64,000 nt of DNA from Amphiscolops sp. MND2022 (taxonomy: Eukaryota). The DNA lies in assembly GCA_964187785.1 (NCBI GenBank), contig OZ076409.1:76818001-76882000 (forward strand), given 5' to 3'. The notes below the pieces were generated by a model. It was given only the letters and a program-made list of their open reading frames with translations. It was not told the DNA's origin and searched no databases. This document shows positions 31,080-62,783 of this stretch, piece by piece; the stretch's first letter is position 1; every line of letters starts with the position of its first letter. The position numbers and the translations under genes were made by a program.

Positions 31080-31500
31080 GCGCCAAGACTCAAAAATAGC
31101 AAAAGTACTTCAAAGTGTGAAGGATGTTTTTACAGTACCCGAAAAACCCAAAAGTTGGACCGAATTGGCGCGCCGGGCCCGTTAACGCGGATCCCTGGCG
31201 CGCTAAAAGGGGACACGTTGGGATTTTTCAACATTTCTATCGCAAAACATCAAAAAATTGAAGGGGGACCCTTCGAAGTCATTAAAAAATTTTTCTCTCA
31301 CAATGCCGAAAAAACTTAAAGGTGGGACCCTTTAGTCTCGCTCGGTATTGTATGTTAGCGGAAAAAAGGAAATACCTTTTTAGTTCAGTTCTCTAGGCCA
31401 AATGGTTCAACTTGACACCAATAAAGGTTTGTAGAACAATTTTAGTCAGTTCGTGTGGATTGAAAAAAAGTCGCGTTTCATTTCATGAAGCGCCGACTAA
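31080..31500 (+). repeat. Dispersed repeat family copy (inverted homolog at ~46300-46780)
   Basis: TTCAGTTCTCTAGGCCAAATGGTTCAACTTGACAC and GGGACCCTTTAGTCTCGCTCGGTATTGTATGTTAGCGGAAAAA match reverse complements at ~46378-46480. Confidence 0.75.
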
Positions 31501-31800: not shown

Positions 31801-32114
31801 CCCAGTACGACGATCTTTCCTTCGATCTTATTCCGGAGATTTTGATTTATTGCAAGAAATCAGTGTCTACACTGAAAAAGGGTGTAACGACCCGGCAATA
31901 GAATTATCATACGAATATGACTATTTTTAGAACACTTGATCGAAATTTTGAAATCTTGGAGTTTTTTCTATCTCAGTGAGATTCGATTTCGATCTTGGGA
32001 TAATGATACATCTTGGTACGATCTCAGCAATAATCTTGTTATGGGATCCATGGTTACCGAGATGTAGTAAGAGTTTGGCAAGATCTTGTCATGGCAGCCA
32101 AGATGCTATGCTAG

Positions 32115-32814
32115 TATAGCGGACAGTAAACAGGAAATGAATTTTTTAATACATGTGAGACTTCATACACGTTACATATACACATCTATATATTGAAAAA
32201 TATTAACAGCGTTGCTTAATATACATTGTAACAATTGTTGTGCACATTTTACTTTTTTTAAAATATTTTACAAACAATTATCCAGGCAGTTCCAGGCAGT
32301 GTGCATTTTAAAAAGCCTTGTGGTCGTTTCTAAAAATTTAGCTGCCTTGTAGTAATAAATATTTTGTTGAGTCTGATTCAGCTTCCCAATTGTTCAGCCG
32401 CCCCCTTATTTCAGCTGCCCCTTATTTAAAGCTGCTCTTATTATTTTATGCGCCCAATTCAGCTGCTCCTTTATTAACATTCATCAAAAGCCCCACTCTT
32501 ACCCAGTGCAGGATTAATTATTTATTCGTTTCTTGCACCTGCAGAAGTATCTTCAGAAACCGAAAACTATCACAGCCATAACATCATTCATCAAGCCAAA
32601 TGTAAGTTGCTGTTTGTTACTTAATAATTTTGGTCAGTAAATATCGTTCTTTAAAATTGAGTTTTCATATTCTTATAGACTTTTTTTCTTGTCCTTTTTT
32701 TTAGAAATATCCACTAGTCATTTTTAAAAACAAAATATATCCATTTACCCCAACAATCGCCCTGCGCATCGAAAGTTGAAACGAATTCAAATCTAGTAAA
32801 AAGCGATTGTTGAA
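32115..32814 (+). repeat. 5' LTR of element 1 (700 bp)
   Basis: Matches 44175-44874 with two substitutions seen (32721/44781 and 32812/44872). Contains a TCCAGGCAGT tandem, CAGCTG-CCCTTATT repeats (~32395-32475) and a TATTTAAA TATA-like box near 32424. Confidence 0.95.
32600..32607 (+). promoter_or_regulatory. Candidate major splice donor AT|GTAAGT in the LTR of element 1
   Basis: Consensus GTAAGT at 32602-32607, preceded by AT and downstream of the TATA-like box. Compatible with three AG|G acceptors (see findings). Confidence 0.65.
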
Positions 32815-32815
32815 A

Positions 32816-32833
32816 TGGTGACAAGGGTGGGAT
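32816..32833 (+). promoter_or_regulatory. Primer-binding site of element 1 (Leu-type tRNA-like)
   Basis: TGGTGACAAGGGTGGGAT lies 1 nt after the LTR. TGG-T plus a GTGGG-AT T-arm complement fits a Leu-type (class II) tRNA 3' end. The exact isoacceptor is not determined. Confidence 0.8.
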
Positions 32834-33222
32834 ATTTGTAAAAAGAGAAGTTTTTTTACAAAAAAAAAATTTTAAAGTAACTTAGAACCCCCATCAAAAC
32901 ATTCTTAGTCCTAGACCCGATCCAAAAATTTTTTTTTGAAATGTGCCATTTCCTGGTTCGCCAGTGTTGCCCATAAGATTCCCAATCCGGACATGGTCCG
33001 TGCCTAGTTTTCCAGCTCAATGCTGTGTCTTTCCGCTTCGGCGTGTCTCAGGCTTTAAAATGGCACATTTGACCCAATGCCCTTAAGTTTTAAGAAGTTA
33101 CACGGTAAGTGCTTGTCATAAAACAAACAGTAGCCAATTTTTTGTAACATTTCTATCAAAATAGTTCCGTTTTCTTTTTGATAACCTAAATTCTAATAAC
33201 CGCCGCGAGTTTTTTTGTTGAT

Positions 33223-33492
33223 ATGCCTTGTGCTCACAATACGCATTCTCACCTACCGTTGTACGTTTTTCCCCAACGACCGCTTCGACCATCAAGTCCT
33301 CCGCCCTCTTACAGCGAAACACGTGAAAGACCGATATTCACGCCCTGTTTTTTTAGTTTTCTACTCTTGATCCTCCGTTTTGCGCTTCTCTTGACCGTTT
33401 TAGCCCTTTGTGCGATGTCGTACGAAATCAACAAGATAAATATAACTTGTAAAGCACTTCAAACCCAAAGAGTGGACTATACGTCTCTGTAG
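33223..33492 (+). CDS. ORF A: 89-aa single-pass membrane protein with PPSY motif, in the leader of element 1
   Basis: ATG start, PSSPPPSY motif, hydrophobic FFSFLLLILRFALLLTVLALCAM helix, and an NIT sequon downstream of the helix. Confidence 0.45.
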   Translation: MPCAHNTHSHLPLYVFPQRPLRPSSPPPSYSETRERPIFTPCFFSFLLLILRFALLLTVLALCAMSYEINKINITCKALQTQRVDYTSL

Positions 33493-33502
33493 GAGCGGCC
33501 TA

Positions 33503-33901
33503 ATGTATACTTTTAGCATACCTGTTTCCGTTTTGTCAAACACACCGCCTCAAAACTTCGTTATTCCTTGCTACTTCTGCCAAGTGAAACTTTTCAAAAT
33601 TCCATTATCGCATCAACCAGAACGTCGTTTTACGGCACATGAACTGTCGATTCATTTGCGTCTTGAGGCTATCCACAATTGGCAACATCGAAACGTTTGT
33701 TCAACTTTCCCGTATGGTCGTGTTGATAACAATGCAAGTGTAAAAGCTTCCTGTGCGTCCTTTTTCCCTCAATTATCCAATATTTGGGCTTCTCATATTC
33801 AATTTCTAGCAATACACGTAACGAATCCATTCTTTTTGGTCTATCCCGACTGCAAACCACCTAGTCTCAATTTTGGTCCGCTGCGAATGGATCGCATGTG
33901 A
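33503..33901 (+). CDS. ORF B: 132-aa Cys/His-rich protein upstream of gag
   Basis: ATG start, CYFC...HELSIH...HNWQH...C, and an in-phase splice acceptor TCTCTGTAG|G at 33492/33493. Confidence 0.5.
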   Translation: MYTFSIPVSVLSNTPPQNFVIPCYFCQVKLFKIPLSHQPERRFTAHELSIHLRLEAIHNWQHRNVCSTFPYGRVDNNASVKASCASFFPQLSNIWASHIQFLAIHVTNPFFLVYPDCKPPSLNFGPLRMDRM

Positions 33902-33942
33902 AACGTTCTAGACCTAACGTAGACTTTAAGCGTTCAAATACA

Positions 33943-35163
33943 ATGAGCACTCAACCAAGCACCCCCACAACGGCCACCTCGACAGCGGTAACCAATACCA
34001 CTACAACCCCAGTTACTAGTGGTGGTGCAAGTAGCTCCCAAGCACCAGCACAAGCACCTACCGTGGGTTCTACAACTCCTAACACTAGTACAACCCCAAC
34101 AGCTTCCTTTTTCACTCTGCCTGGCGGTAGACAAAACCCAACAAGTGTTCCATACATAGCCCCGCTTCCGTCATGTCTGATGCCAGAGTCTTTCACAGGA
34201 AAAGGTGATTTCGAAGATTACCTGCAACAATTTAACACAGCAGCACTTCTCTCAGGCTGGTATTCGAACGCACACGATAACAGACCACATTATTTTGCGT
34301 TGCGATTGAGAGAAAATGCTTTGCATTTCTACACTACGTTGTCTCCATCACAACAAACTAACTTCGATATGCTCGTTGACGCGTTCCGCCAGAATTACAC
34401 AACTAATGGCGATATTCTGAAAGCAAGATTGAAAGCCGCGAAGCAGCAACCCAACCAAGATATTTCATCTTTCCTATGTGACGTTCGGACGCTGGCGCGT
34501 CGTGCATATCGGGATCATCCTGCTATGATTGATCCGGTAGTTCTGACGTGCTTCATTGAAGGGTTAAGCGACAAAACGCTTCGATGGGAGCTCCGAAAAG
34601 CCAAGCTAGCCACAGCGGATGATGCTTTGTCCTTGGCTATGGAGCTGAATTCGTTCCTGGAGATTGAGAACGGAAACCCCCAAGCCGCTCAAACAGTTAA
34701 CCGAGTTAGTACTTCTTCTGAAGCGGAGCCATCAGCGTCCAAAATTATGGCTGATTTTGTTCGATCATTACAAACTGAACTTCAGTCGTCAACGTATCGG
34801 TCCAATAATGATTTCCATCAACGAGGAGACACAAAATCATCAAACAGAAATGATCACTCGAGATCGCAGAGTAATGATTCCAATCGGAGTGGCCAGTCAG
34901 TACGATTTCAGTCGTCACAAGGACGCGAACGACCAAATAACGCAGGCAGATCTGACAAAACACAAAAACAACAGTATCGCCAAGATTCCCCCCATCCCAA
35001 GAAACAAGGCAACAATAACAACACGCAAAACAATCGGAAGCCGTGCGAGCGTTGCACACGCAAAAATCATACAACGAAGGAGTGCAAAGCTTGTTTCAAT
35101 TGTTTGAGAGTCGGTCATTTCCAGAATGAATGCAAGGCTCCCAAAAGGGAACATTTAAACTAG
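33943..35163 (+). CDS. gag: Gag of element 1 (capsid plus two CCHC zinc knuckles)
   Basis: ATG at 33943 in ACAATGA context, capsid motif PESFTGKGDFEDYLQQF...GW, and knuckles CERCTRKNHTTKEC and CFNCLRVGHFQNEC. Confidence 0.95.
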   Translation: MSTQPSTPTTATSTAVTNTTTTPVTSGGASSSQAPAQAPTVGSTTPNTSTTPTASFFTLPGGRQNPTSVPYIAPLPSCLMPESFTGKGDFEDYLQQFNTAALLSGWYSNAHDNRPHYFALRLRENALHFYTTLSPSQQTNFDMLVDAFRQNYTTNGDILKARLKAAKQQPNQDISSFLCDVRTLARRAYRDHPAMIDPVVLTCFIEGLSDKTLRWELRKAKLATADDALSLAMELNSFLEIENGNPQAAQTVNRVSTSSEAEPSASKIMADFVRSLQTELQSSTYRSNNDFHQRGDTKSSNRNDHSRSQSNDSNRSGQSVRFQSSQGRERPNNAGRSDKTQKQQYRQDSPHPKKQGNNNNTQNNRKPCERCTRKNHTTKECKACFNCLRVGHFQNECKAPKREHLN

Positions 35164-38100
35164 AAATGTCTACCCTAGCGGGTCACAGCGCAGACAAGAC
35201 CACAAACCGAGGCCCACAAATTCAGACTCTTAACTCTGTGGTGGATCACAGAAGTGTATTCGTCCAATTATCCATTTTTAATACGGTGATTGAGGCTGTG
35301 TGTGATAGTGGAGCAAGTGTGTCTTGCCTGAGTTCTGATGCATTTGGGAAATTGAAGAACGGGAAGAATTTAGAGCTAAAACCGTCAGACACGAAGCTTG
35401 TAGCAGCCAACAAACAACCTATAGTAACATGCGGCATTGTGCAACTACCTTTGCAAATCGGTCCGAGACATTACGAACATTCGTTTCACGTTCTGGAGCA
35501 AGCAGAAGCTGACTGTCTACTCGGCTTAGACTTCCTCAAAACTCATAAATGCGACCCGTTGTTTTCCCAAGATATTCTGCGTCTGGATGAAAAGACGACA
35601 GTCCCCCTGTATCATCGTCAGCTCACAGATGCTAAGACAACTGTGTTCAGGGTGGTGGTGTCCGAGACAGTTTCGGTACCACCACGACATACAATGATTG
35701 TGCCAGCGCACATCAAGGATTGGAAACGCCCATTGAATGAGGGTGTAGCAATTTTCGAGCCGCACGAACGGTTCGATGGCTCAAAAGAAGCAGTGGCACC
35801 AAGTATTTTGTTCAACTTTGCTGAGGAAAACATCCCGGTGACGATCGAAAATTCTGGAGAAGAGCCACTGATCTTGTATGAGAAAACAACTTTGGGTACT
35901 TCAGAAGCAATCCCTGATTTACCCATACAAAACGTTGTAACCGAAACAAAAAGCTTGAAGTCTAAAATAGACGAAAAGGACGAATCGTACGATTTGAAAA
36001 ATGTAGTGGATGGAGTTGATCCGGAAATTCCATTCAAAATAAAACAGAAATTCGCAGAACTTGTTTACGAATTCGAAGATGTGTTTTCGCAAAACCAATG
36101 GGACATTGGTCGTTGCGAAGCTACAACACACAAAATAAACGTATACCCCGGATCAAAGCCGATTAAAATTCCGAATCGCAGAATGCCCCTCCACTATAAA
36201 CAGGATCTCCAAGAGAAATTAGACGCGTTCCTGGACAAGAAGTTAATAGCTCCTTGTCACAGCCCTTACAGTGCACCCGCCATGCTAGTCCCGAAGAAAA
36301 ACGGAAAACTCCGCCTCGTCATTGACTACAGACAATTGAATAGTCAAACAATCAAGTCTTGTTGGCCAATCCCTTCGATTGAAGAAATTTTTGACACTCT
36401 AGATGGAAGTTCAGTCTTTTCCACTATAGACATGAGTTGGGGATTTTATCAGCTGCCCTTAGACGAATCAAGTCAAGATTATACTGCTTTCAGCACACCT
36501 TTTGGTTCCTTCAAATGGCTTGTAATGCCGATGGGACTCACAAACAGTCCACCGACGTTCCAAAATTTAATGGAAATCGTTTTGGCGAAACTTATCTGGA
36601 AAACAACAGTCCCCTACCTTGATGATTGTATCATCTTTGCCGCTTCCCCGGAGGAACACTTAGAACGAGTCAGGGAACTTCTAGGCAGATTTAGACAAGC
36701 CAACTTGAAAATAAACCCCCTAAAATGCGAGTTTTTCCGCACCAAAGTCCACTTCTTGGGCCATGTCATCAGCAAAGAAGGCCTTCAAGTTGATCCCACA
36801 AAAATTGCAGCCGTTAAAGAGTTTCCGGTCCCAATTAACCAGACCCAGGTGAAGTCATTCTTGGGCCTTTGTTCCTACTATAGACGTTACATCAAAAACT
36901 TCGCTGAAATCGCTCGTCCCTTGCATAAAGCGAGTGAAACCAACTCGCCTTTTAAGTGGACAACTGAGGCAGAGCAAGCGTTTGAAGATCTAAAAGCACG
37001 ACTCCTCACAACACCAATTTTAGCCTTTCCAACAATGGAAGATCCTTTCATCCTCTACACGGATGCCAGCCAACTAGCAATGGGAGCCGTTCTAGCCCAA
37101 GTACAAAATGGCCAGGAACGTGCTATTTGCTATGCATCAAAGGCATTCTCCAAATCCCAATCAAAGTACTCAGCGACGAAACGAGAACTTCTCGCAATGG
37201 TCCATTTCACTCGGTACTTCCGACATTACCTACTCGGTAGAAAATTCAAAATTGTCACAGACCACAGTGCACTTCGCTGGTTACACAATTTCAAGGACCC
37301 CGACGGTCTCATTGCACGTTGGATTGAAAAACTAGCAGCTTTTGATTACGAAGTGCAACATAGACCAGGCAAATCCATCGGACATGCCGACAGTCTGTCC
37401 AGAATACCAACTGAATCCGTCCAATTAACGCAAGAATGCCGAACAGGAGTCCCAGGTGCAACAAAGACGAAGAATTGCAACAATGACGAGGAATGGCCCA
37501 ACGCACAATCTAACTACAGTATTCACCTATTGCCTAGAGATACAGCATCAATACCACTCCAAGCTATCATTGAACTCAAGGAAAAAGCTAATAATCACAG
37601 CAAAGTTAAAACCGGCGAACTTCTCGAACACGAGCAACCACAAGAAAAGCCTCTACAAGAAGAACTAGTCATTACAGAAACAGGCATTGTCAAGTATCGC
37701 GAGGTGAAGGGCGATTTGTTCAGTTCTTCGGAGTCCCTAGCTCACTGTATCTCAGCTGATTTTAAAATGAGTTCTGGAATAGCCCGATCATTCAAAAGGA
37801 AGTTCCCAGCACAGTATCCAGAGGACTTATCAAAGCAAACTGTGCCACTTTGGGTACAACCATTACCTGGTGACGGCCGTTTCCTGTATCACTTGCTGAC
37901 TAAGGAACGTTACTACCAAAAGCCAACATATACTTCACTTCGAGCTTCTCTGGAACACATGCGTAGCCATGCTGAAACGAACGATGTCCTAAAGATTAGT
38001 ATGCCTCAAATAGGCTGTGGAAATGATAAACTTGACTGGGATTTGGTTCGCAGACTCATCCGAGAAGTCTTTGACGGATCCAATGTATGTATAACTATTT

Positions 38101-40070
38101 ATTTGCCTCCATCAATTTCACTTGAGAGCGAAGGCCCACCCGTAGAAACCGCTAAAGATAATGAACCAGTGCATGCGGACATTGATGTCCGCAATGCTCA
38201 AGATGAGGACGAGGCCCTGAAAATCGTAAAAGAATGGGTTCGCAGGGGTCGTGTGCCGCGGAATAACGACCTACAAGGAAGTCCCGAGTTAGCATGGAAG
38301 CTGTACAATCAATTCCACAGTTTATATCTGGCCAATGACGTCCTTTGTCGACGGTATGAACCAGTTGGAAGTGAACTTCCGTACCTACAGCAAATTGTTC
38401 CCCGTACCTTGGTAGAACATATCCTAACAAACTTGCACTCTTCCGCTACCAGTGGACATCTAGGTTTAGCCAAGGTGATGGAGAAAGTTCGACAGCGTTT
38501 TTGGTGGCCTGGTTTCAAAGAGGATATCAAGCTTTTCATAAAACGTTGTTCCGAATGTCAGCGACGCTCGGATCCTCCCAAAACACATCGTCATTCCCTT
38601 GTAGAGTGGAAAGCTAGTTATCCCTTTCACCACATTGGAATCGATTTCATGGGCCCATTGCCGGCCTCGAATGGAAACAAAGTAATTCTGTTGATCGGGG
38701 ATCATTTCACAAAATGGTATGAAGCAATTCCCTTGCCAGATCAGCAAGCTACAACAACGGCTACCGCTCTTATCGAACATTGGATCTGTCGATTTGGTTG
38801 CCCCTACAGCATACATAGTGATCAAGGACGTAATTTTGAGTCCAAGTTGTTCCAGACGCTCATGACAAGCCTTCACATTGACAAAACAAGAACAACTGCT
38901 TTTAGGCCCCAGTCTAATGCAGTGATCGAGCGAATGAATCGAACAATCCAGAACATGCTAGCAAAATGCGTAAACGCTGAACAAAGTAACTGGTCCCAAC
39001 AGTTACCCTACGTAATGATGGCCTACCGGTCATCTGTACATGAATCAACCGGATATTCGCCTCAATTTCTTGTTCATGGGCGAGAAATTTCCTTGCCAAT
39101 CGATTTGATGCACCCTGCACCTGAAGCCGAAAAACCAATGTCGCCTACGGATTTTGTATACAATCGAAAATTGGCCTTCCAAAGAGCTTTCGAACTAGTG
39201 CGAGCCAACATTAATAAAAACCAAAAACGTCGCAACGCCATTTACAACGAGAAGATCCATGGTCCTACCTACGAACAGGGACAGAAAGTGTTGCTCCACA
39301 CACCAGTGGTCCCAGTTGGCCAAACAACCAAGTTCCACAACCCATGGCGTGGTCCATATGTGATACTTGACTGTTTCAATGAGGTCACATACAAGATAAG
39401 AGAATTGTCTACGTCCAAAGAGCTGATCGTTCACTACGATAGGTTGAAACCTTTTTGCGAAAAACCAGCTACTTCAAATGTGCCTACTCGAAATACTAGC
39501 TTAACCCAGCCCACAAAACCAGTTCACTCCAATGTCCCAACACGGAATAACGACTTGAACACCACACCACCTGAAACCTCGCATCGATGCTGCATGCATT
39601 TTCAACAGCCACCACTGCAGCCTATGAATCTCCACAGCCCTGCTCACCTAAACCACCAGACTACTCCAACGCCACAATCAACTAGCCACAATGCTCAGTC
39701 ACCGACCCAAACCCGAACTCCCGCTTTCCTCTCCGGTAATCAGCATTCCCAATCTTTTCAATCTCCTGGCGTTCAGACGATGGCCACTCCCGCAACTCCT
39801 TCAGTCGACAACCCTAGTTATCGTCAAGCACCAGCATCCCATTCACCTTTGTCAAACGAATCCCGAAACATCGTTGAAAACGCTGCTGTTCAGTTTCGAG
39901 ATATGATAAACAGACCATACAATCTCCGCGCAAGTACACGCACACAGCGATTGGCGGAACCCCTGTGTAATTCCTCAATACCTTCTGAACTAACCGATTT
40001 CAACTCGCCGCCACTGCACAGCATGCCACATTCCACCAAACGTTCCAAAAACTATACAAAAAGGAAATAA
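35130..40070 (+). CDS. pol: Pol of element 1: protease, RT, RNase H, macrodomain, integrase with GPY/F, S/P/T-rich tail
   Basis: CDSGASVS (protease), YLDD (RT), YTDAS (RNase H), HSSATSGH...CSEC plus IDF/SDQG/IER (integrase), and PWRGPY. No stops over 1646 codons. Confidence 0.97.
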   Translation: MQGSQKGTFKLEMSTLAGHSADKTTNRGPQIQTLNSVVDHRSVFVQLSIFNTVIEAVCDSGASVSCLSSDAFGKLKNGKNLELKPSDTKLVAANKQPIVTCGIVQLPLQIGPRHYEHSFHVLEQAEADCLLGLDFLKTHKCDPLFSQDILRLDEKTTVPLYHRQLTDAKTTVFRVVVSETVSVPPRHTMIVPAHIKDWKRPLNEGVAIFEPHERFDGSKEAVAPSILFNFAEENIPVTIENSGEEPLILYEKTTLGTSEAIPDLPIQNVVTETKSLKSKIDEKDESYDLKNVVDGVDPEIPFKIKQKFAELVYEFEDVFSQNQWDIGRCEATTHKINVYPGSKPIKIPNRRMPLHYKQDLQEKLDAFLDKKLIAPCHSPYSAPAMLVPKKNGKLRLVIDYRQLNSQTIKSCWPIPSIEEIFDTLDGSSVFSTIDMSWGFYQLPLDESSQDYTAFSTPFGSFKWLVMPMGLTNSPPTFQNLMEIVLAKLIWKTTVPYLDDCIIFAASPEEHLERVRELLGRFRQANLKINPLKCEFFRTKVHFLGHVISKEGLQVDPTKIAAVKEFPVPINQTQVKSFLGLCSYYRRYIKNFAEIARPLHKASETNSPFKWTTEAEQAFEDLKARLLTTPILAFPTMEDPFILYTDASQLAMGAVLAQVQNGQERAICYASKAFSKSQSKYSATKRELLAMVHFTRYFRHYLLGRKFKIVTDHSALRWLHNFKDPDGLIARWIEKLAAFDYEVQHRPGKSIGHADSLSRIPTESVQLTQECRTGVPGATKTKNCNNDEEWPNAQSNYSIHLLPRDTASIPLQAIIELKEKANNHSKVKTGELLEHEQPQEKPLQEELVITETGIVKYREVKGDLFSSSESLAHCISADFKMSSGIARSFKRKFPAQYPEDLSKQTVPLWVQPLPGDGRFLYHLLTKERYYQKPTYTSLRASLEHMRSHAETNDVLKISMPQIGCGNDKLDWDLVRRLIREVFDGSNVCITIYLPPSISLESEGPPVETAKDNEPVHADIDVRNAQDEDEALKIVKEWVRRGRVPRNNDLQGSPELAWKLYNQFHSLYLANDVLCRRYEPVGSELPYLQQIVPRTLVEHILTNLHSSATSGHLGLAKVMEKVRQRFWWPGFKEDIKLFIKRCSECQRRSDPPKTHRHSLVEWKASYPFHHIGIDFMGPLPASNGNKVILLIGDHFTKWYEAIPLPDQQATTTATALIEHWICRFGCPYSIHSDQGRNFESKLFQTLMTSLHIDKTRTTAFRPQSNAVIERMNRTIQNMLAKCVNAEQSNWSQQLPYVMMAYRSSVHESTGYSPQFLVHGREISLPIDLMHPAPEAEKPMSPTDFVYNRKLAFQRAFELVRANINKNQKRRNAIYNEKIHGPTYEQGQKVLLHTPVVPVGQTTKFHNPWRGPYVILDCFNEVTYKIRELSTSKELIVHYDRLKPFCEKPATSNVPTRNTSLTQPTKPVHSNVPTRNNDLNTTPPETSHRCCMHFQQPPLQPMNLHSPAHLNHQTTPTPQSTSHNAQSPTQTRTPAFLSGNQHSQSFQSPGVQTMATPATPSVDNPSYRQAPASHSPLSNESRNIVENAAVQFRDMINRPYNLRASTRTQRLAEPLCNSSIPSELTDFNSPPLHSMPHSTKRSKNYTKRK
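35154..35160 (+). promoter_or_regulatory. -1 ribosomal frameshift heptamer U_UUA_AAC (gag to pol), element 1
   Basis: CAT TTA AAC TAG ends gag, and pol is in the -1 frame. Confidence 0.85.
37689..38103 (+). other. TARG1/OARD1-type macrodomain within Pol of element 1
   Basis: VKGDLF..SLAHCISADFKMSSGIA..FKRKF...YHLLTKERYYQKPTY..LRASLE.M..H......ISMPQIGCGNDKLDW..V..LIREVF follows the TARG1 sequence motif by motif. Confidence 0.92.
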
Positions 40071-40150
40071 CTTCAAATAGTTGCATTTTATTTCTCTCTC
40101 CAGGTCATTTCCCATCACCAATGGCCTAACAAGGCTCCTCTGTTTTTCAG

Positions 40151-42497
40151 GATTTCCTACTTTCCAAACTCTCAACATTTCTCGTTTCTCTTTCTGTTCG
40201 TCCGTTGGTCGGTCCTGATCTTTGCGGATGTGCAGTTCACAACACACCTCAACGATGACCTGGAAAAACCCGTATTCAAGAAAGGTGCAGCGTTTGTGTT
40301 CAAATACCAAGCTGTTACCTCGGAGAGCGAAAGCAAAGTCCGCGTGTTCTCTCCCTTCCCCAAGATGCCTCTAATCAACATTACCAATGCCATTAACATG
40401 ATCAATGCCTTCCAGACAGCCCCTCGAAGCATCGGAGGTATGTACATCAATACAAACTGCAAGTTTACAGACGTTAATGACACCTATGACCTCCTCCTGC
40501 AACAACTTGTGACAAGAGTCAATTTCCTGCAAACAGAGTTGGCTGCAGCTCAACAAGAGGAAGACACTCTTCTGGAAGTTGTGAATTCTTTCATTCCACC
40601 AGCTGTTAGACAATCTGATGACATCGCACGACCACGTCGAGCAATTGCCGCTATTGCTGCAATCGCAGCAGGTGCCGGAATGGTCTTGGGTGAACCAATC
40701 AAAGACGCCGCTTGTAGTGCGCTTTCTATATTTAACCTCTGTCACACCAATGAAGATCTGAGTCGCGACGTGGAACGCATAATGAGCACACAGCAAGAAA
40801 TTGTTGATACACTGCAGCGTGTTCAAACTCGAAACGACAAGAATTTCTTCCTTCTAGGAAACGAGATTAAACAGACCCAGGAAAGTGTCCAGAAACTAAA
40901 AGAAAGTGTCGGTCTCCGCTTCCAACAAATGGAGTTTTACCTAGTTAATGCTACTCGCTACTTGGCTGCGACTAGCCTTGAGTGTGACAGAGTGATTATT
41001 CGTCACCTTAGCCTTCAGCAATTCTTGCGAAATTACGTCTATCAGCTAGGGACACTTTACACTCATCTCAAGTCGTACCGTGCAGCGTTTTACGCTTACC
41101 GCATTTCGCTCTACTCCACCATTTCCTCGTTAGCTAGTGGCTACATCACACCTCAGTTTCTTCTGCCTCAACAAGTGGCGCAAATTGTCAAAGACTTAGC
41201 AGATGACGAAGTAAAGCGGGGCACCAAACTGTCCCCAGCTATTCGACCTGGTTTTGAGGCAATATACTATGAGATACAATTAGTACTCGAAGTAACTTTG
41301 ATACCACGTGGTATATCTGTCATTCTTGGGATCCCAATGAATTCAAAGTCGTCGACGTTTGACATTTACCATGCCACGCCTCTGTATCAGCCCAACAATG
41401 ACCAGAAGACTGCGTCGCTCTTCAATTTTGCGAACCCTTTTTTGGCCGTATCTACTGACAATAGTAGATTTGCAGAACTCGGTGCTAATACGCTGCAGCA
41501 ATGTTCGGGTAACAATCGTATCAAATTATGTAGAAAAGGCTTCTCGACAACAACCGATGAAACTCTTCTTTGCTTAGGATCCTTGTTCTATAACTACGAT
41601 GTTCCCGCCTTACGCAATTGCGAAGTCCGCGCAGTACTTTTACCCGACGCTCCTCAGGCTTTTTATTTGGCGGATGGAATGTACCACGTCATATCGCGGT
41701 CTCCCACTCTCAAATTCAAAAACGATAGCCAAATTGACGGCCTTTCTATCTCTACTATCACCTGTCAGGCGTGTGTCATACGCCCTAGCTGTTCGAGTAC
41801 ACTGTCTTTCAACCAGGGTGAACTGGTTCTTCACCCTGACATGGATTTTTGTGAGACCCGACCGGAGCCTTTTCTTGCGTCGATTGAGCTGACACCGTCT
41901 TTGAATCAAGTCTTCGCGCATGTACCCGCCATTGGTAGCGCCGAATTTCAGGCATATTCTACTAGTGAAGCTCGTCAGTCAGTTCTTGGCAGTCTACGAA
42001 TGGAACTAGCCGAACTACCTGACGTCCAACACATGTCGCCGGAAACTCTAGATCAACTGACAGAGCCAATCGCTAAGTATTATTCTTCGATCTCGCCGGC
42101 CACATCAGCAGCTTTACAGTCATATTTACCCACCCGTACTGCTTTTTTACTTTCGTCATTGTCCATTACAATGTCTATTTTAACATTTTCTATAAGTTTT
42201 ACTTTGTTTAGACGTCGTTGGCAGCGTCTTTTTACCAATCCTCAACGCTTTTTCCGGGCTACTTCCGGTAGATTCATTAATATAGTCGAATCAATTACCG
42301 CGGAGTATGATTTGACCAATTCTCCATTTTTGTATTTGACGGACGCTGAATTCCGCGCACTGATTTTGCTGGCTCGCGAAACCATTCGTCAAGCTGAACC
42401 GAAACCATCTAATTACACTGCACCCAACGCCCCTACACTTCCACCACGTGTTTATCTTATTATTAGTGCGCCTACTTATGAGTCTACTTCGACATGA
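40151..42497 (+). CDS. env: Env (class I fusion-protein architecture) of element 1; start probably created by splicing
   Basis: Signal-like FSFLFLFVRWSVLIFA, furin site RPRR (40629-40640) followed by fusion-peptide-like AIAAIAAIAAGAGMVLG, a heptad repeat, a Cys-rich ectodomain, and TM AFLLSSLSITMSILTFSISFTLF followed by RRRW. Confidence 0.9.
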
Positions 42498-42559
42498 TTT
42501 AATTGCTTAGCACATTTCTGTCTCACTGTCAATTTCAGCTTCTTTATCAACTACTTAGG

Positions 42560-42955
42560 ATTTCCCTTCCTAGATGCTTTCCTACGCAGCTAGTGCCTGT
42601 TCTACACGTTTCCGTGTTACTTACGTTCCTCTAGGTTGCCTTTCCTTCCTAGTTGCTTTACTACGCAGCTAGTGCCTGTTCTACACGTTTCCGTGTTACT
42701 TACGTTCCTCTAGGTTGCCTTTCCTTCCTAGTTGCTTTACTACGCAGCTAGTGCCTGTTTTACACGTTTCCGTGTTCCGTTACTTTCCCTTAGGTTGTCT
42801 TTTCCTTCCTAGTTGCTTCACTACGCAACTAGCGCCTGTATTGATACACGTTTCCGTGGTGAATCTCTTTTCGCTAAGCTGTCTTTTTCTCCTAGTTGCT
42901 TCGCTACGCAACTAGTGCCTCACAACACACGTTTCCGTGTCCGCAATTAAGTTTT
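42560..42955 (+). repeat. Tandem array of five ~79-83 bp units between env and the J-domain ORF
   Basis: CTACGCA(G/A)CTAG cores at 42582, 42661, 42740, 42821 and 42904. Confidence 0.92.
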
Positions 42956-42988
42956 TTCCTAATTGTTTAAACAATTAGTGTCTAGCAG

Positions 42989-44134
42989 ATGCGTTTCCGC
43001 ATCCTAAGTAGGATTTTCGTACAAAGTGTAATCGGTGCAATCAGTTTTTTTTGTTGTTTCAGGTTCCAGTTTCCAGCAGCTCCAGTTCCAGCGCCCTTCC
43101 TCCTCAGCAGCGGCCGCGTGCAGCCTCTGGCAGAGGGATATGTAGTCCGCTTGTTGGACAAAGACGATTATCGTATCAAGAGAATAAACCCCGCTACACA
43201 AACTGTTGTGCTACAAAAAATTAATTCAAGTAATCGTTGCTTTGCTCGACCAGCTACGGAAATCTGGCTTCCTCCTCCAAGCAGTAACAGCCTGAGCGTG
43301 GAAGTGGACTGCCCTCCCCCTCCAGCAATCTGTGATTGCTCGCCAGTACCCCCTAAATTAATAGTGGACACCTGCGATGTAGCAGTGGATGCGTCCCTCG
43401 ACGCTGACGACAGCATGGAACTCTTAGTATCAGAGTTTTCTTCGGTTGGCGAACTCAATAAGGGTTTTGAAGAAGCCCGTGCAGCAGCTAATAAGGCTCG
43501 CATCGAGTGTGAGCATACGTTCGACCTCCTTTGCGAGGAAATGACTCTTCGGAAGGCAAAGGAAAAGGAAATTCATGAAGCAAAAATCGAGCTCGCTGGT
43601 TTACAAACCAACATTGCTTCTCAAGTCGTCGCCCTCGCCGAAAAAGACAGTGAAATAGCCGCCCTGAAGAAGCGCCTCAGTGCCCTCAGCGACGAAAACA
43701 GCTCTTTGCTGCAACACAGTCTCCAGCAAAGCGAAGAACTCTCTAACCTTAAACTAGCCGCCAACAGGGTTTCAGATGCCCATCTAACCACTGACATGCT
43801 AATCTATCAACTTTCCACATATACTCCTGAACTCGATTTCGCAGATGAGAACATATTCTTTGATATACTTGGCCTGCCACCCACAGCCGATGTCGAAAAG
43901 ATCAATCGTCATGCTAGACATCTTTTAAGACTCGTACACCCCGACAAGAACCCTTCCATCCCAGCCGAAGTGTCCCAACTGGTCCCCTGCCTTAAGGAAG
44001 CGAAAAACGTCCTCACGGATCCCCGGCTCAACAAAGTATACCGGTGTTGCGGTATGACAGGTGTTCGCCGGGCCCGTCGTAAATTACGGACCTGCATGGA
44101 TTGTGACTCCCACATGTCGGACTGGTTCGAGTAA
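42989..44134 (+). CDS. Accessory ORF of element 1: coiled coil plus C-terminal J-domain (DnaJ/Hsp40-type, HPD intact)
   Basis: NIFFDILGLPPTADVEKINRHARHLLRLVHPDKNP...LKEAKNVLTDP (~43850-44053, HPD at 43937-43945) and a heptad-rich region at aa ~155-255. The stop lies 28 bp before the PPT. Confidence 0.88.
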   Translation: MRFRILSRIFVQSVIGAISFFCCFRFQFPAAPVPAPFLLSSGRVQPLAEGYVVRLLDKDDYRIKRINPATQTVVLQKINSSNRCFARPATEIWLPPPSSNSLSVEVDCPPPPAICDCSPVPPKLIVDTCDVAVDASLDADDSMELLVSEFSSVGELNKGFEEARAAANKARIECEHTFDLLCEEMTLRKAKEKEIHEAKIELAGLQTNIASQVVALAEKDSEIAALKKRLSALSDENSSLLQHSLQQSEELSNLKLAANRVSDAHLTTDMLIYQLSTYTPELDFADENIFFDILGLPPTADVEKINRHARHLLRLVHPDKNPSIPAEVSQLVPCLKEAKNVLTDPRLNKVYRCCGMTGVRRARRKLRTCMDCDSHMSDWFE

Positions 44135-44162
44135 TTTGGCTGGCGGGGACGCAGCCTTTCAC

Positions 44163-44174
44163 GGGGGAGGGTAG
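44163..44174 (+). promoter_or_regulatory. Polypurine tract of element 1
   Basis: GGGGGAGGGTAG immediately precedes the 3' LTR. Confidence 0.85.
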
Positions 44175-44874
44175 TATAGCGGACAGTAAACAGGAAATGA
44201 ATTTTTTAATACATGTGAGACTTCATACACGTTACATATACACATCTATATATTGAAAAATATTAACAGCGTTGCTTAATATACATTGTAACAATTGTTG
44301 TGCACATTTTACTTTTTTTAAAATATTTTACAAACAATTATCCAGGCAGTTCCAGGCAGTGTGCATTTTAAAAAGCCTTGTGGTCGTTTCTAAAAATTTA
44401 GCTGCCTTGTAGTAATAAATATTTTGTTGAGTCTGATTCAGCTTCCCAATTGTTCAGCCGCCCCCTTATTTCAGCTGCCCCTTATTTAAAGCTGCTCTTA
44501 TTATTTTATGCGCCCAATTCAGCTGCTCCTTTATTAACATTCATCAAAAGCCCCACTCTTACCCAGTGCAGGATTAATTATTTATTCGTTTCTTGCACCT
44601 GCAGAAGTATCTTCAGAAACCGAAAACTATCACAGCCATAACATCATTCATCAAGCCAAATGTAAGTTGCTGTTTGTTACTTAATAATTTTGGTCAGTAA
44701 ATATCGTTCTTTAAAATTGAGTTTTCATATTCTTATAGACTTTTTTTCTTGTCCTTTTTTTTAGAAATATCCACTAGTCACTTTTAAAAACAAAATATAT
44801 CCATTTACCCCAACAATCGCCCTGCGCATCGAAAGTTGAAACGAATTCAAATCTAGTAAAAAGCGATTGTTAAA
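44175..44874 (+). repeat. 3' LTR of element 1
   Basis: About 99.7% identical to the 5' LTR and followed by the CTAG TSD. Confidence 0.95.
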
Positions 44875-46299
44875 CTAGCAAGAGGGTCAACACGGGTCGT
44901 TTTTTTCTGAGCTGAAACCCGTTTCTAAATCGCCTTCTTTCGGTCGTCTTGCACTTTTTACCTCGAGAATAATGACATCACTTGTGCCGAGGCAGTGTTT
45001 TCGCCCAACATGTTTGGTAAAAGCTTGGCTTCGTGTTGAGCCACGTCCACTTCGATATCGTTCTCTCGCAGTTTCCTCTGTATTTAATTGCTTTTGGCGT
45101 GACTATATCTTATATTCTTTTTTTTTTAACGCAAGAATCGTGATTCGTTGAAAATTTCCCACCTGCCGTTTGAAAACCCCAACTGGCCCAGTTTTACTAT
45201 GTCTCATCATCGAGCCACTAGCGAGGCAGTAACCGGTGGTTTATAGAATCTTTCGATGGTATCTTTGGTGCGAGCTTCCGTCTTGATTGGACAATTTTTT
45301 TTTGCATTGCCCGCTTGATTATTAGTGAATTGGCGTGCTCGTTGTGGGGCTTTGTTTTTGTGTTCAGCTTTAGTTTATTATTTGATTGCACCGGTTCAGC
45401 TCCCGTAATACGCTGTTATTGGTTGTTCAAATTAGATTCTGCCACATTAGCATTGCGCGTTAACCCTAACTGACCCGGGAGTTTTTGCAAATTTTCAAAA
45501 AAAAAATTGATTAAAAATTCAAATCTTCAATATTCCCACAACTACGCGTGCCAGAGAAACGAACTATAACGCGTTTGAAAGGTCTGGTATTGGGCTTTCA
45601 TTTTGATTAGATGAGCCCCTTTGTGCGGGGGCTTATAGTAACAACAGAATATTATTGGGATTTATTGCGTAAGAACTTGTTGTGCAAGTGTATGGGGTTA
45701 GTTTTTACTATGGGTCAAGATTTTTTTGAGAAAACTGGATTTCGCCAAAAAGAGAAATTTAGAAACAAATAACCAATTTTTGTGCAAAAAACTCATTTTT
45801 CCCAGTTTTGGAGACATATTCACTTTTCCTAATGCTTGTGCCAATCAAATCAACCAAGGAATTGTTGAGAAAAAAGCTGTGCTAGAGAATATGGGCTACT
45901 GGCAGAACGGATTAGAAATTGAAAAAAAAGGTATGTTGCCATAAAGTAACACTGGGTTGATTGGAACTAGGTTTCAATTTTTTACAGCAGTAAATTGTGT
46001 TGACCAATTTTCATTGTCCTAGATATCGTTCGATTGCGTTCCGGTTATTGGCTTCCGGGTCATTAATTAATTTAAGCAAAGGTGTCTTGCAGCAATTTGT
46101 TTGATACTCTTTTCAGGCAGTTTATTTAATGAAGTGTTTTAAACATTGTCTTTTTTGCTGTGCCTTATACGAACGTACGTGCAAAGCCTATCCGTTTTTC
46201 AGCAGTTGTCCGGGTTTTCCTGCCAAACTGTGGCCTTTAGGTTTTTTGACTGGCGTCCGTCGTAAACATTTTCAGTCGGCGCTTCATGAAGTGAAACGC

Positions 46300-46780
46300 G
46301 ACTATTATAGTGACTCTTTTTTTTCTATCCACACGAACTGATCAAAATAGTTCTTAAAAGTTCTATAGAATATTATGGTGTCAAATTGCACCATTTGGCC
46401 TAGCGAACTGGACCAAAATGGTTTTACCTGTTTTTCCGCGTAACATACCATATCGGGCGAGACCAAAGAGTCCCCCCTTTCATTTTTTTTCGGCACTGCG
46501 AGACATTTTTTTTTCGGAATTTTTTTTCGAATTTTTTTTCCTCAAAGGGTCCCCCCTGCATTTTTCGATGTTTTGCGACAGAATGGATGTTGGAAAATCC
46601 CAAAGGGTTCCTCCTTTCAGTTTTTTTTCGGCATTGTTAGATTTTTTGCCGAAAATAAAAAAAAATTTCAATTTTTTCATGTTTTGCGACAGAATGGATG
46701 TTGAAAAACCTCAAAGGGTCCCCCCTTTCAGTTTTTTGGCATTTTGAGACGTTAGCGCGCCACTCGGTCCATTTTTTAGT
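46300..46780 (-). repeat. Dispersed repeat copy, inverted relative to 31080-31500, with internal duplication
   Basis: Homologous to 31080-31500. TGTTTTGCGACAGAATGGATGTTG occurs twice (~46569, ~46680), and AAAGGGTCCCCC is repeated. Confidence 0.75.
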
Positions 46781-47105
46781 ATGTAATTTTTTCAAAAAAA
46801 AATTTTCGAAAAGTTTTTGATTTTCGACTACTGTAAAAGAATACTTGACACTTGGAAGTCTTTTTGCTATTTTTGAGCCTTGGATATGGGCCGGTCCCGG
46901 CTTGTTAATAACCTACTGTGAGAAAGACACAGTATTACCATTATCAACTTCTTGATTTGTTCAAATCCTTGTGTGTCTACTTCGTGATAACCCAATTTGT
47001 TTTCTTCGTTGAAGTTTTCTGATTTTGTGACAGTCTGTAACCAACGTGTTCTACAACTTCCGTCATGGTTTTCATCAGTTCTGCTTTGTATTCACGTTTC
47101 ACCTC

Positions 47106-47815: not shown

Positions 47816-49182
47816 TCTTTATTCCAAATTTGTCGTCCAGCTATTCAGAAGGTTTACTTTCTGATGTTGAGTTTTTCTCCTGGAACAGAGTTGGTATGCC
47901 TTTATGGCTGTAAATGCCTTCTAAAAAATTACGGAAGTTGTGAGTTCTACTCTTGTGACAGCGAATATGTTTATGTTCTTTGCACATTCTATTTAGGAAC
48001 TTTCACATTCCATTTTTATCATTTTTCAGATTCCACGGATTTCAACGGATCATTTTTTTCGCAGTAGTTATTGTTTTAGTTGACGAGACAAACTTCGGTC
48101 GCAATGCCCGGATTTGGTCAAAATGGTTTTCTTTTTCCTACAAATTTTTTCCTTTAGAAATGAGTTCATTCTAATTTTTTTCAGCAATCTGATTGTTTGG
48201 ACTTTTTCTGGATATGTTATTTCAAGTCTTGGTTTTCGGATTCGTTTTTGAATCGAACTTTATTTGCTTAACGTTATCACTCCTCGCAAACCATAGCTTT
48301 TTTACCCAGAGGATTGGTGTCTTTCGCTGTTATTGGTAATTCCACTTATTCCACTTGGAGTTATTCTTTTCGTTGCAACATTCCTTCTTCCGGTAGACAT
48401 TTCTGCCCAAAATGTAGCTTTCGCAGCTGAAGGATCAATATATGTTTCTGATATGGAATATGGGAAGAAATGAAAACAATGAAAACGAAAACCAGTTGAA
48501 AACAACATGATATCGCTTCTGTACATTGTCTGTTGTTCAACTCTTGTGAAACTAGCTTTAATTTCAATGTAGTACACCCGGGTTTACAGGCTGTGGCTTT
48601 TCATTTATGATTCATGAGTTTGCCATGCCGAGAATTATTCCATCATGGCAAGGTGTCCATGGTTCATGGATGAAAAGCCATGATGGCATGGATGATCATA
48701 GATGAAAGCGCATAAAGTTAACCATAAACAGTCCTAAACCTTCGATTTTTTTTGCATTCGTGATGTCCTTATATTCAACAAAAATAGAGAATTGACAATG
48801 AACTGAATTAAGTAATTCCATGTCTGAAAAAGCCGATATGTCGGTTGTACCAAACTTTTTAAAAAATATATAATCAAAACGTTATGAATCTGGTTCAGCA
48901 AGTTGACTTTAAAACACCTTTTCAACGTTTCACAGATTTTTTTATTTCTGTAGAAAAGTTCTACAGGCATGAAAATTAGGACGCATTGTATTCCTTTTCT
49001 CCGCGCGCGTCGCGGCAGCGGCATTGTATTATTTAGTCACAAAGCGTAGCACAGTACTTGCATAAAGCACGTGACGAATACCGAGCATAAAAGTTGAACA
49101 ATATATGAATACAATCACAGCATACTCACAGAGGACGACTTAAAATTAATAAAAGGAACATACTAACGATCGGCAACGTATA

Positions 49183-50034
49183 CTATTTTTCCTTCAATCC
49201 CCTAACCGCCATACAATGATATTCCCCTCGCGACTCCAGATATCTACAAGCTAAATAGATACTCCCGTGTGTAGGTCCTTTATGACAGCCGCGGTACACA
49301 ATCCACTCGCGTGACTGCTCGAAGTATTCGTAGATCGTGACTCCAAGCTCGCGAGCGATGACGCGTGTGTCGGTCCGTGAGATGAAGTATGTGTCCCCAG
49401 GACCGTCGGTGGGAAGTTCGTCCGCGTATTCATCGTACATGTAAGCAAAGCGGCCCTTTCTAATCTTCCGCACCCAGTCCTGAATGGCCACCGCAGCTTT
49501 GATACTCCCGGTCAAAATAACGCTTAAAGTAGTGCAGACACAATTATGAGGACTCGGGCAATTAACTAATTTCGGTCTAAATTTTGAAGCATCAATTTCC
49601 TCGTGATTGCTCGTTTTAAAATGCTTCACCCATTTGATGCCGATCTTTCTGCATAAAAATTTTCTCTTCTTTTTGGAACAATGAACCATAGGACCACTCC
49701 GTCGAACGGCGATACGGGAGTCAGCGCAAAAGGAACAATTAGCTACAATGTCTGCACATGCAAGTCTCAAATAAGGAACGATAAAAATATCACGGGCACG
49801 AAGGTAAAGATCATTTGCAGGGGGGTGGCTCTCTCTTTCATGTAAACTCCGTAAGTGATCCTCGATCTCATCAGAGAGTAAAATGCGGCGGCCCCCACAA
49901 AATAATCGCCCGTCAATAAATTGGCACTGCTTAGCTTTCCGTCTGAGGGATCTTCGGTCATTCAGGGAAAATGTAGGCGGGAAAGTTTTTGAAGTAAAAT
50001 ACAAAACGAACGCCAAGAAGAGTTCTTTATCCAT
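49183..50034 (-). CDS. Antisense ORF inside the LTR: integrase/GIN1-type HHCC zinc finger fused to an OTU-like cysteine-protease domain
   Basis: 283 aa from ATG at 50034. N-half DRRSLRRKAKQCQFIDGRLF..RRILL..E....L..LH....H...CSFC. C-half LCRKIGI...PHNCVCTTLSVILTGS...IARELGVTIY..Y....W..Y...IYL...HCMAV. Confidence 0.65.
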   Translation of the reverse strand: MDKELFLAFVLYFTSKTFPPTFSLNDRRSLRRKAKQCQFIDGRLFCGGRRILLSDEIEDHLRSLHERESHPPANDLYLRARDIFIVPYLRLACADIVANCSFCADSRIAVRRSGPMVHCSKKKRKFLCRKIGIKWVKHFKTSNHEEIDASKFRPKLVNCPSPHNCVCTTLSVILTGSIKAAVAIQDWVRKIRKGRFAYMYDEYADELPTDGPGDTYFISRTDTRVIARELGVTIYEYFEQSREWIVYRGCHKGPTHGSIYLACRYLESRGEYHCMAVRGLKEK

Positions 50035-50046
50035 GATGCAAGTTTT

Positions 50047-50228
50047 CACGTGAAATAGATATCAATTGTTTGTTGTAAGGTGAATGGAATAAACTGACTG
50101 CGTACGCACGTGAGTTGCGCACTATGCTAGCGCTCGCTACGGAAAGGCCGCTACAACGCTGCGGGGGGGATTATTACGTCATCAATACAGGGAACCTGCT
50201 CCGCTAGCCGCAGCAACTTGTGACGTCA
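50047..50228. promoter_or_regulatory. CRE/E-box cluster upstream of the antisense ORF
   Basis: CACGTG (50047-50052, 50107-50112), TTACGTCA (50174-50181) and TGACGTCA (50221-50228). Confidence 0.4.
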
Positions 50229-50272
50229 CAGCAGAGGGAAAATAGGACATCAGATTTTAGTATTTTTGGGAC

Positions 50273-50612
50273 CTGACCACTTTTTTCCTCGCTAGCCCTT
50301 TTACCTTAAAAATGGTCGGATTTAGATGAAATTTGGCACGAATATAATAGAGGTCATGTGCAAACTACATGCAAAATTTCAGCTTGCTACGATTACCGCA
50401 ACCCTAGTTTTTTCAACTCGGAAGTGGGCTATGTCAAAAAGGTTCTCTGCAACCCGACCACTTTTTTCCGCGCTAGCACTCTTACCTGAAAACTTGTCCG
50501 ATTTGGATCAAAATTTGCACAATTATACTACTGATCAATGACTACCTACATGCAAAAATCCAGATTGCTAAAACCACTCCGAACCCCCGTTTTCGAACCC
50601 GGAAGTGGGTGA
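50273..50612 (+). repeat. Diverged ~181-bp tandem duplication within the LTR of element 2
   Basis: Units start GACCACTTTTTTCC.CGCTAGC (~50273, ~50454) and both end near GGAAGTGGG. Confidence 0.75.
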
Positions 50613-52377
50613 ATTGACAACAACCGGAAGTTCTAGAAATAACCCTTAAACCAAGTTCCAGGGCGCACCATTATCGCCCAAACGGAATGTAAACGTCTCT
50701 CAACTAAGTATGGGTCATTTCTAAATAGTTTTTTGGTCGTTTGACCCTAAATAAGCTCAAACTATCGAAAATCCGGATACCCTAAAACCCAAAACTAAAA
50801 AAAAATCATCCAAACTTGGTTAATTCAACAAGGGGGGCATCATGAAGCTTATTTTTACCACCCTATTAGTTGTTGGGGCATTGGAAATGTCCGGGGAGAT
50901 CCAAATTGATCCTGGAAACGGGAATCGGTATATTCGAGATTCGAGAAAATAACCCTAACCCTAAATTTGGAAATGACCCATATGGCCGTTGCAAATAGTG
51001 GTGTTGTATATCGATCGAAACGGCGTCGTGTCACGAGGCCAATTAAAGTGCCCATTTTTCAAATTTCAACCAATTTGAACCATTTCGCCTTTTCTAGGGT
51101 TTTTCATGAGAAAATCGGGTTCTACATATATTGAGACTAGTGATCGGATTTTTTTTCAAACTTCGAATGACCTAAAATAGCATGATGCTTATATCAGCGC
51201 GACTACGAAATTCTCCAAGCAGCGTTACGCGAAACCTCATTAATTATGCAGAGCGCATTACGCTCCGCCAGCTGCAGATAGAGTATTAGCAAAGCAAGTC
51301 CCTTTTCAGTGCGGCGAATGCTCTTTCAAGTGGAACACTTTTGTTTATTGCAATTATATAGCCTCGAGGAACAATTTATCTATTGCTTCTGTATTGAGCA
51401 TATTTAATGACGTTGAGCTATTGAACAACGGCGGGAAGCTGACAGCTTTATTGAAATAATAGACTGCGAGGCGCCGAGGCGACTCTGCCAGCTGCACTAA
51501 TGAGGCCGCGTGTGTTCTTTACTGTTCCACTTGAAAGCGCAAGCGTTAAGATGAAAAATAGATTAAATACGATAACAAACATAATATCTAATAAAGCCGA
51601 GCAGTTCATGCTGATCCAGATAAGCGAAAACCGAAGAAAATAATACAAATTTTGCAGAGGAGGAAAAACAAAAAAAAACCGACGCCCCCGGACGCAATAA
51701 AATAAATAAAACGAAACCGGCTCGTCGGAAACGAAAGAGGAGAGGAGAGACAGACCGTGTAGAGAATAGTTGTGTGCTCAGAGAAGAGAAAATAGTGAAA
51801 AAAAGAAAAACATTGAGAATCCGGGCCCCTCATACAGAAAATAACACATACATTTTTTGCCTGATTGTCTAATTAGTGAGCTGAGAAACACGTTGAACCC
51901 AACCCCATTCAATTAACGTTGTTTGTATTGATTACCCGGTGCCGCTCGTACGTACCTGTATCTATTTGGAAGCATTTTGTGTTTGTGTGTTCGAGTAGTT
52001 TCTTTCCATATTTCTCACCCGTATCTATTTGAAGCACTATTGTTATTCGTGGGTGCACTGTGTTTAAATATAAAGAAACCCCGCTTATTTGAAGTCTTGT
52101 TTGCTGAATATTCCCGCTATTCAGGGAAAAGTAGTGTTTTCTTTCGCTTTTCGAAAAGAATAATTGATTGTTGTGTGGCGTTCTTTTGCCAAACAAGAGC
52201 CGAGGCCCTGATAGAGACAGGTCAAACTCAGAAAAAAGGGAAAAACTGATTGAACGTTGAATAACTGGAACCTTTTCTGCCCGTTGCGGCCTGCTACTTT
52301 TCGGTATAAAAAACTCTTGTGGAACACCTAGCTCTCGATTCGCCTCGTCGAGAGTGTCGCGACTCAAATAGGTGTTG

Positions 52378-62711: not shown

Positions 62712-62783
62712 CCAGTCAAAATTTTGTTTCTATTTTTTTCTCAAACATCTTCGCCTCCGATAAATAAAGAAGAAAAAACTACA

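Follow-up and report, generated by a model that had tools for sequence, protein, structure and literature searches.

Start codons probably built by splicing from a donor inside the LTR for env and a J-domain gene in an errantivirus-like element of Amphiscolops sp.

In RSV and HIV one splice donor is joined to several acceptors, and whole start codons are kept. In gypsy and the springer subclade the env start is itself made by splicing, from an AT at the donor and a G at the acceptor, a mechanism that the initial annotation of the present locus had named for Drosophila gypsy and that is indeed documented in the open text of the relevant papers (PMC2585583; PMC12992720; bioRxiv 10.1101/2023.08.03.551782). 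As far as such text goes, the gypsy donor lies in the gag region, the Springer donor is GTAAGT, 43 nt downstream of the LTR (PMC13097621), and in both cases the donor serves env only. Foamy viruses carry their major donor within the LTR, in both LTRs, and make several spliced mRNAs; they are Retroviridae with a second promoter in env and, in the text of that source, with no split start codon (PMC3694450). Env-carrying Ty3/gypsy elements of non-insect animals have been surveyed as 'ancient errantiviruses', such elements being known across animals (PMC13524379), and LTR elements of bdelloid rotifers combine a paramyxovirus-F-like env with captured ORFs for an esterase, an exonuclease or a dUTPase (PMC5408684). 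The accessory ORFs of MDG1 are described as unspliced (PMC11952523).

The element analysed here lies in a window of 64,000 nt, the whole stretch of DNA examined, and occupies about 32115-44875. Its layout is as follows (a slash in any motif below marks the splice junction).

32115 to 32815, + strand: 5' LTR, 701 bp; probable bounds, beside a probable CTAG target duplication from which the exact termini are taken
32816 to 32833, + strand: primer-binding-site-like sequence with TGG at its start
33503 to 33901, + strand: ORF B, 132 aa from its own ATG; conserved, without a Pfam family
33943 to 35163, + strand: gag, with Retrotrans_gag and a zinc knuckle
35130 to 40070, + strand: pol, in the -1 frame; protease, RT, RNase H, Macro-like insert, integrase
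40152 to 42497, + strand: env, F-type; signal-like stretch, furin-like site, fusion-peptide-like and C-terminal hydrophobic segments
42547 to 42940, + strand: five tandem repeats of about 79 nt each, with hairpins; TAG/G sites out of phase
43064 to 44134, + strand: accessory J-domain ORF; SH3/KOW-like barrel, long coiled coil, J domain with HPD
44163 to 44174, + strand: polypurine tract
44175 to 44875, + strand: 3' LTR, with the same donor present at 44662

The two LTRs are 99.7% identical, with one mismatch and one indel between them, and the element is intact and a recent insertion; its termini, as placed by the duplication, are not TG..CA. The full reading frames run from 33446 to 33901 for ORF B, from 40071 to 42497 for env and from 42986 to 44134 for the J-domain ORF, and the Macro-like insert in pol is a below cut-off match. 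By gene content and landmarks we would class the element as an env-carrying Ty3/gypsy type, an errantivirus in the wide sense, since it has an LTR pair, primer site, polypurine tract and target duplication, with gag followed by protease-RT-RNase H-integrase and an F-type third ORF. Neither further copies of its LTR, ORF B or J-domain ORF nor any tRNA gene was found in the 64,000-nt window, Rfam gave no match in 31000-64000, and no covariation was found in the hairpins of the roughly 79-nt repeats. A second element in the same window starts its ORFs at native ATGs.

With the 'ancient errantiviruses' this element shares the gag-pol-env order, the F-type env, the LTRs, the primer site and recent copies, whereas ORF B before gag and the J-domain ORF after env are additions relative to the surveyed elements as the text presents them (PMC13524379). 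It has an F-like env and extra ORFs in common with the rotifer elements (PMC5408684), and a donor inside the LTR, present in both LTRs, in common with foamy viruses (PMC3694450). The likeness to gypsy and springer lies in an AT/GT donor and an in-phase AG/G before an env that lacks its own ATG; unlike theirs, however, the donor stands within the LTR, ahead of the primer site, and a non-env gene, that of the J protein, has the same acceptor phase. The element would work like springer, yet the position of its donor at 32602, inside the LTR at 32115-32815, sets it apart from the springer subclade. The main text of PMC13524379 does not contain 'splic', 'DnaJ' or 'J domain', the supplements of the eLife survey that were searched for the family motif gave no match, and in the open text of PMC5408684 'DnaJ' has 0 occurrences and a splice-built start was not found. 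In the open-access literature searched we found neither a split start shared by several genes, nor a J-domain gene in an LTR element, nor one intra-LTR donor serving env and an accessory gene. What we describe is probably a variation on the known split-AUG mechanism, extended from env alone to at least two genes.

Our analysis of the sequence suggests that env and the J-domain gene are probably initiated at an ATG built by splicing from the LTR donor. The sites that bear on this are the following.

32153 to 32160, + strand: second AT donor, GTGAGA (site 32155), 5/6, near the LTR start and probably upstream of the transcription start
32600 to 32607, + strand: donor AT/GTAAGT inside the 5' LTR, 6/6 match
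32680 to 32705, + strand: competing acceptor TAG/A with T-rich tract; top score; 103-nt intron, or poly(A) downstream element
33103 to 33110, + strand: second perfect donor, CG/GTAAGT; its phase-2 frame is closed by a stop
33473 to 33493, + strand: acceptor TAG/G for ORF B; weak, rank 53 of 329
40084 to 40104, + strand: strong CAG/G acceptor, out of phase for AT/G and in phase 0 for env
40126 to 40151, + strand: acceptor CAG/G for env, with tract and CTAAC branch-point-like motif; rank 24
43043 to 43063, + strand: acceptor CAG/G for the J-domain ORF, with T-rich tract; rank 7

The initial annotation had paired the donor with three AG/G acceptors in phase and had read AUG-UAA at the donor in unspliced RNA, and all of these coordinates and phases are borne out: AT/GTAAGTTG is located at 32601/32602, the unspliced RNA reads ATG-TAA at 32600, and at 33493, 40151 and 43063 the G is the third codon base in the frames of ORF B, env and J, where a split ATG opens 136, 782 and 357 codons respectively. 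Only 2 of the 578 GT sites of the element are perfect 6/6 GTAAGT donors, 32602 and 33105. When all donors of at least 5/6 are paired with the ORF-start acceptors, 33105 supplies no start to 40151 or 43063 and is in frame only to gag and to weaker sites from 43077 on, with ATG 33077 upstream; of the two perfect donors, 32602 alone gives a start codon to 40151 and 43063. TATTAA at 32472 together with CCAGT at 32503 would place the transcription start upstream of 32602, as would AATAAA at 32354, the only such motif and itself upstream of the donor.

How surprising are these coincidences of phase? The initial annotation put the chance of three in-phase sites at 1 in 27, a figure that ignored the out-of-phase sites and was counted post hoc, since 40 of the 329 YAG sites in the element are YAG/G. 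At a threshold of 10 (chosen low enough to include 33493, which falls out at 11), an in-phase site occurs in 5.9% of 120-nt windows, or in 2.8-9.2% for thresholds 12 to 8, and a qualifying site is found at 3/5 ORFs of this element vs 0/4 of the second element; the binomial P for such in-phase sites is about 0.002, again a post hoc estimate. Thirteen YAG/G sites have at least 11/16 pyrimidines and no close upstream AG, and among these only 40151 and 43063 open more than 80 codons. The ranking of acceptors rests on a simple ad hoc pyrimidine score over the 329 YAG sites, by which 32705 and 40104 outscore the proposed acceptors. Joined to the LTR donor, 32705 would read AT/A, and although 40104 outscores 40151, an AT/G built there opens just 38 codons. 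The CTAAC motif lies 25 nt 5' of 40151, and the J-domain ORF has a second in-phase AG/G at 43012.

Acceptor-side support appears strong for J, good for env and weak for ORF B. For J we examined 159 proteins, an initial 12 plus 147 others from the best 150 of 479; with a profile that left out the junction, 67 of the 159 matched at the N-terminal core. Leaving out 19 whose match missed the core start and 10 that begin downstream of the zone, 38 remain: 25 with [FY]R, 2 with [CSL]R, 7 whose first Met falls in the zone and 4 with neither. The dipeptide thus stands 9-20 aa before the core in 25/34 relatives that extend at least 14 residues, as against a shuffle null with mean 5.3, SD 2.0 and a maximum of 14 in 5000, a comparison that overstates independence because the relatives have common ancestry (by core identity the 25 fall into 13 clusters at the 70% level and 4 at the 50% level). 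Its placement is at about the junction column, where it corresponds to the translation of an in-phase TT(T/A)CAG/G. Gene calls in the protein collections seem to come from a finder of prokaryotic type, one that continues into introns and accepts GTG as a start, so that an in-phase TTTCAG/G or TTACAG/G would appear as Phe-Arg or Tyr-Arg. A few [FY]R matches may miss the junction, as in P0174, and P0217 is ambiguous.

Further traces of the junction are seen in the same family. In 4/7 of the relatives with a first Met in the zone (P0011, P0158, P0247, P0195), this Met aligns with the Arg of a close relative, the position expected for an AT/G made by splicing; alternatively, a single-base change could have turned AGG into a Met codon in decayed copies, one that gene callers would preferentially take as a start. 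Other frames of the acceptor DNA, read as F-Q-V or F/V-S/T-G, are visible in 4/9 further relatives against a shuffle mean of 0.36 for this narrow pattern, which was picked after viewing, whereas the broad third-frame pattern is at chance level (4 vs 3.6). A partial counter-signal comes from the phase-0 pattern [FYVL]Q, present in 9/34 where the null gives 3.8; most of this excess we attribute to an F-Q within the J protein right after the junction. The profile search of genome contigs with the J alignment found no DNA of J relatives.

The protein itself is predicted to be a J-domain protein with a four-helix J fold and HPD. It has a Pfam DnaJ match (E 3.7e-10), and its predicted structure (pLDDT 85.6), comprising an SH3/KOW-like barrel, a long coiled coil and the J domain, gives a J-domain fold match with Z 10.1 and rmsd 2.5 over 74 residues. 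HPD is found in 8/12 close relatives, the rest being two that end before the domain, one frameshifted there and one with HRD. The barrel begins about 7-10 residues past the junction, and a start at the next native Met would delete it.

For env, the initial annotation had noted that no ATG lies upstream of the signal-like stretch, and this is so: the hydrophobic stretch starts nine residues after the junction (about codons 36-54 of the frame), and the first native in-frame ATG, at 40365, is only codon 99. An anchor could be placed in 48 of the 120 listed env relatives, out of 127 found, and 5 extend far enough upstream; [FY]R stands 42-51 aa before the anchor in 5/5 of these and at 44 in the present copy, in a zone set after viewing and with 3/5 of the relatives from one subfamily. 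P0031 shows the env footprint by eye. In 20/48 anchored relatives the first Met lies 29-43 aa before the anchor, nearer the signal, and some env subfamilies may therefore initiate at a native codon, like the second element. The near-signal first Met of these 20 may be an ATG or a GTG/TTG call. No DNA of env relatives was found by the profile search of genome contigs with the env alignment. The protein resembles F-type fusogens: the top clusters are Baculo_F/Fusion_gly at 0.94-0.95 with a recognition value of 1447, under the tool's 2300 mark, Baculo_F is found in 4/25 aligned env members and not for the window protein itself, and 'fusion protein' matches are weak (E 0.02).

Does the scheme extend to ORF B, as the initial annotation proposed with its three-way switch? 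The env and J parts of that proposal are supported, given the phase-2 acceptor footprint across divergent relatives (the protein-level form of the conservation check on AG/G that it had suggested) and a sole fitting perfect donor in 32602; for ORF B a split start is not supported as a requirement. A full switch, in which ORF B too starts mainly at the splice-built ATG and which overlaps the two-way scheme, has some weight as a possibility but is not what we expect. The site 33493 is in phase, no other in-phase YAG/G qualifies at the start of ORF B, and ribosomes are unlikely to scan as far as 33503 on unspliced RNA through a 1.3-kb leader rich in ATGs. However, 33493 stands 53rd among 329 sites, lacks a branch-point-like motif and drops out at threshold 11, and ORF B seems not to require a split ATG, since 7/7 relatives begin at the native Met, whose ATG at 33503 lies 10 nt past the acceptor, and none reaches further upstream. 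A splice from the same donor into 33493 may still shorten the leader or add four residues only. ORF B is a conserved coding frame (47-95% identity among relatives); no Pfam family and no structure-atlas match was found for it, and its model has pLDDT 38. Two-way use is likely, three-way use less so. We are rather doubtful of the most ambitious version, in which a single LTR AT donor would be a universal start cassette for ORF B, env and J, with acceptor choice selecting the protein and the unspliced RNA both self-silenced through AUG-UAA and guarded at its 5' poly(A) signal.

The [FY]R footprint marks a phase-2 acceptor, not the donor that feeds it. The acceptors might then be real and fed by a coding upstream exon, as a ZAM- or Idefix-like short peptide or a Gag fusion, with no split ATG, an arrangement that we consider unlikely here. 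Both forms are described for fly iERVs in the open text of PMC12992720 and bioRxiv 10.1101/2023.08.03.551782, and several 5/6 donors of this element would yield in-frame peptide or Gag fusions (33261 or 34896 to 40151 or 43063; 34063 to 40104); the perfect 33105, with ATG 33077, pairs in frame with 43077 and later sites. Yet the donors that reach 40151 or 43063 in frame are only 5/6 matches and the perfect 33105 starts neither, fusion to 317 residues of Gag would leave the env signal buried, and four J relatives start with Met at the junction column.

Less probable still is that no splicing is needed, Phe-Arg being a feature of a hydrophobic N-terminus and translation beginning at ATGs further upstream, at near-cognate codons or by internal entry. 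At 42989 an in-frame ATG does lie upstream of J, where the stretch is hydrophobic, and is common to P0002 without being more widely shared; moreover, many env relatives have their first Met near the signal. But upstream lengths vary from a few to more than 300 aa without a common start, the env of this copy has no ATG upstream after the pol stop, and the acceptor DNA is visible in other frames of out-of-frame copies. The residues preceding Arg (F 38, C 22, S 16, with A and G together only 5/157) fit T-rich codons, unlike a membrane anchor.

Least probable of all is that the LTR GTAAGT acts mainly as a U1 site guarding the 5' poly(A) signal, as foamy viruses employ their LTR donor (PMC3694450, in its open text), or removes a 103-nt intron at 32602-32704, its AT being chance: the nearest acceptor, 32705, is also the top-scoring one, and the variant signals AATAAT at 32623 and AGTAAA at 32636 and a T-rich tract do lie after the donor, but env would be left without a start and the putative intron is kept in both LTRs. 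A U1 guard role would be compatible with the split-ATG scheme.

In the two-gene scheme that we favour, one RNA would be transcribed from the 5' LTR and, unspliced, would serve as genome and gag-pol message, its LTR AUG being shut immediately by UAA. Splicing from 32602 would give a short first exon ending in AU, to which the acceptor would add G; joining to 40151 would produce the env mRNA and joining to 43063 the J-protein mRNA, with initiation at the junction in each case. The same splice would discard the primer-binding site and the leader, which holds 14 ATGs between 32815 and 33896, and the subgenomic RNAs would thus presumably be translated well while remaining unprimed for reverse transcription.

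For the non-insect env-carrying gypsy elements, expression of env and extra genes is a subject that the text of PMC13524379 does not cover, and this element offers exact, testable junctions. More generally, a split start codon would be a reusable module, which suggests that a retrotransposon can add genes that have no start codon of their own; the gene added here is of the Hsp70 co-chaperone type, a parallel to the complex retroviruses. Annotation based on ORFs would clip such env and accessory genes, and the Phe/Tyr-Arg footprint in mis-called N-termini provides a cheap way of finding acceptors without DNA. Finally, host exons too could acquire new start codons from an LTR donor that ends in AT.

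Element 1, the env-carrying Ty3/gypsy LTR element, is listed here with its surroundings and with element 2, a second gypsy element that carries env.

Features of the two elements and their flanks (window coordinates)
31083-31469 and 46318-46883: inverted repeats (81-86%), either side of element 1, at a distance
32111-32115 and 44875-44879: LTR ends of element 1, with non-canonical termini
33503-33901: ORF B, upstream of gag, element 1
35130-35163: gag-pol overlap of element 1, -1 frame
~37700-38100: Macro-like domain of element 1, after RNase H and ahead of integrase (Pfam E 0.005, short of the cut-off)
42547-42940: five tandem repeats of ~79 nt in element 1, after env and before the J ORF
43064-44134: J ORF, accessory DnaJ-domain ORF of element 1
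48949-64000: element 2, its 3' LTR running past the window end
62784-63344: extra ORF of element 2

The target duplication of element 1 is probably CTAG, in the middle of a palindromic target site of 8 bp. The flanking inverted repeats suggest that the element landed inside a different repeat or between its copies.

ORF B is kept, with a C-Y-x-C motif, by 7 relatives; a Pfam search and a predicted model (pLDDT 38) gave no family or fold. Within the gag-pol overlap an A-rich/TTTAAAC stretch, likely a frameshift site, precedes the gag stop, and element 2 has one too, together with an insert alignable with the Macro-like one at the same pol position. The LTR of element 2 (3480 bp, TG..CA termini) contains an antisense ORF of 292 codons; AT|GTAAGC is present at 49441, and the env of element 2, 28% identical to that of element 1, has a native ATG.

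Each ~79-nt repeat holds two hairpins, for which covariation was sought and not found, and four of the five carry TAG|G sites that are out of phase. The repeats could possibly serve as an export, packaging or splice-control element.

Literature searches of open-access papers found no LTR element with a J-domain gene. The J protein comprises an SH3/KOW-like barrel, a ~108-residue coiled coil, an HPD-bearing J domain and a Cys-rich tail; its relatives number dozens and are divergent, and the protein is conserved.
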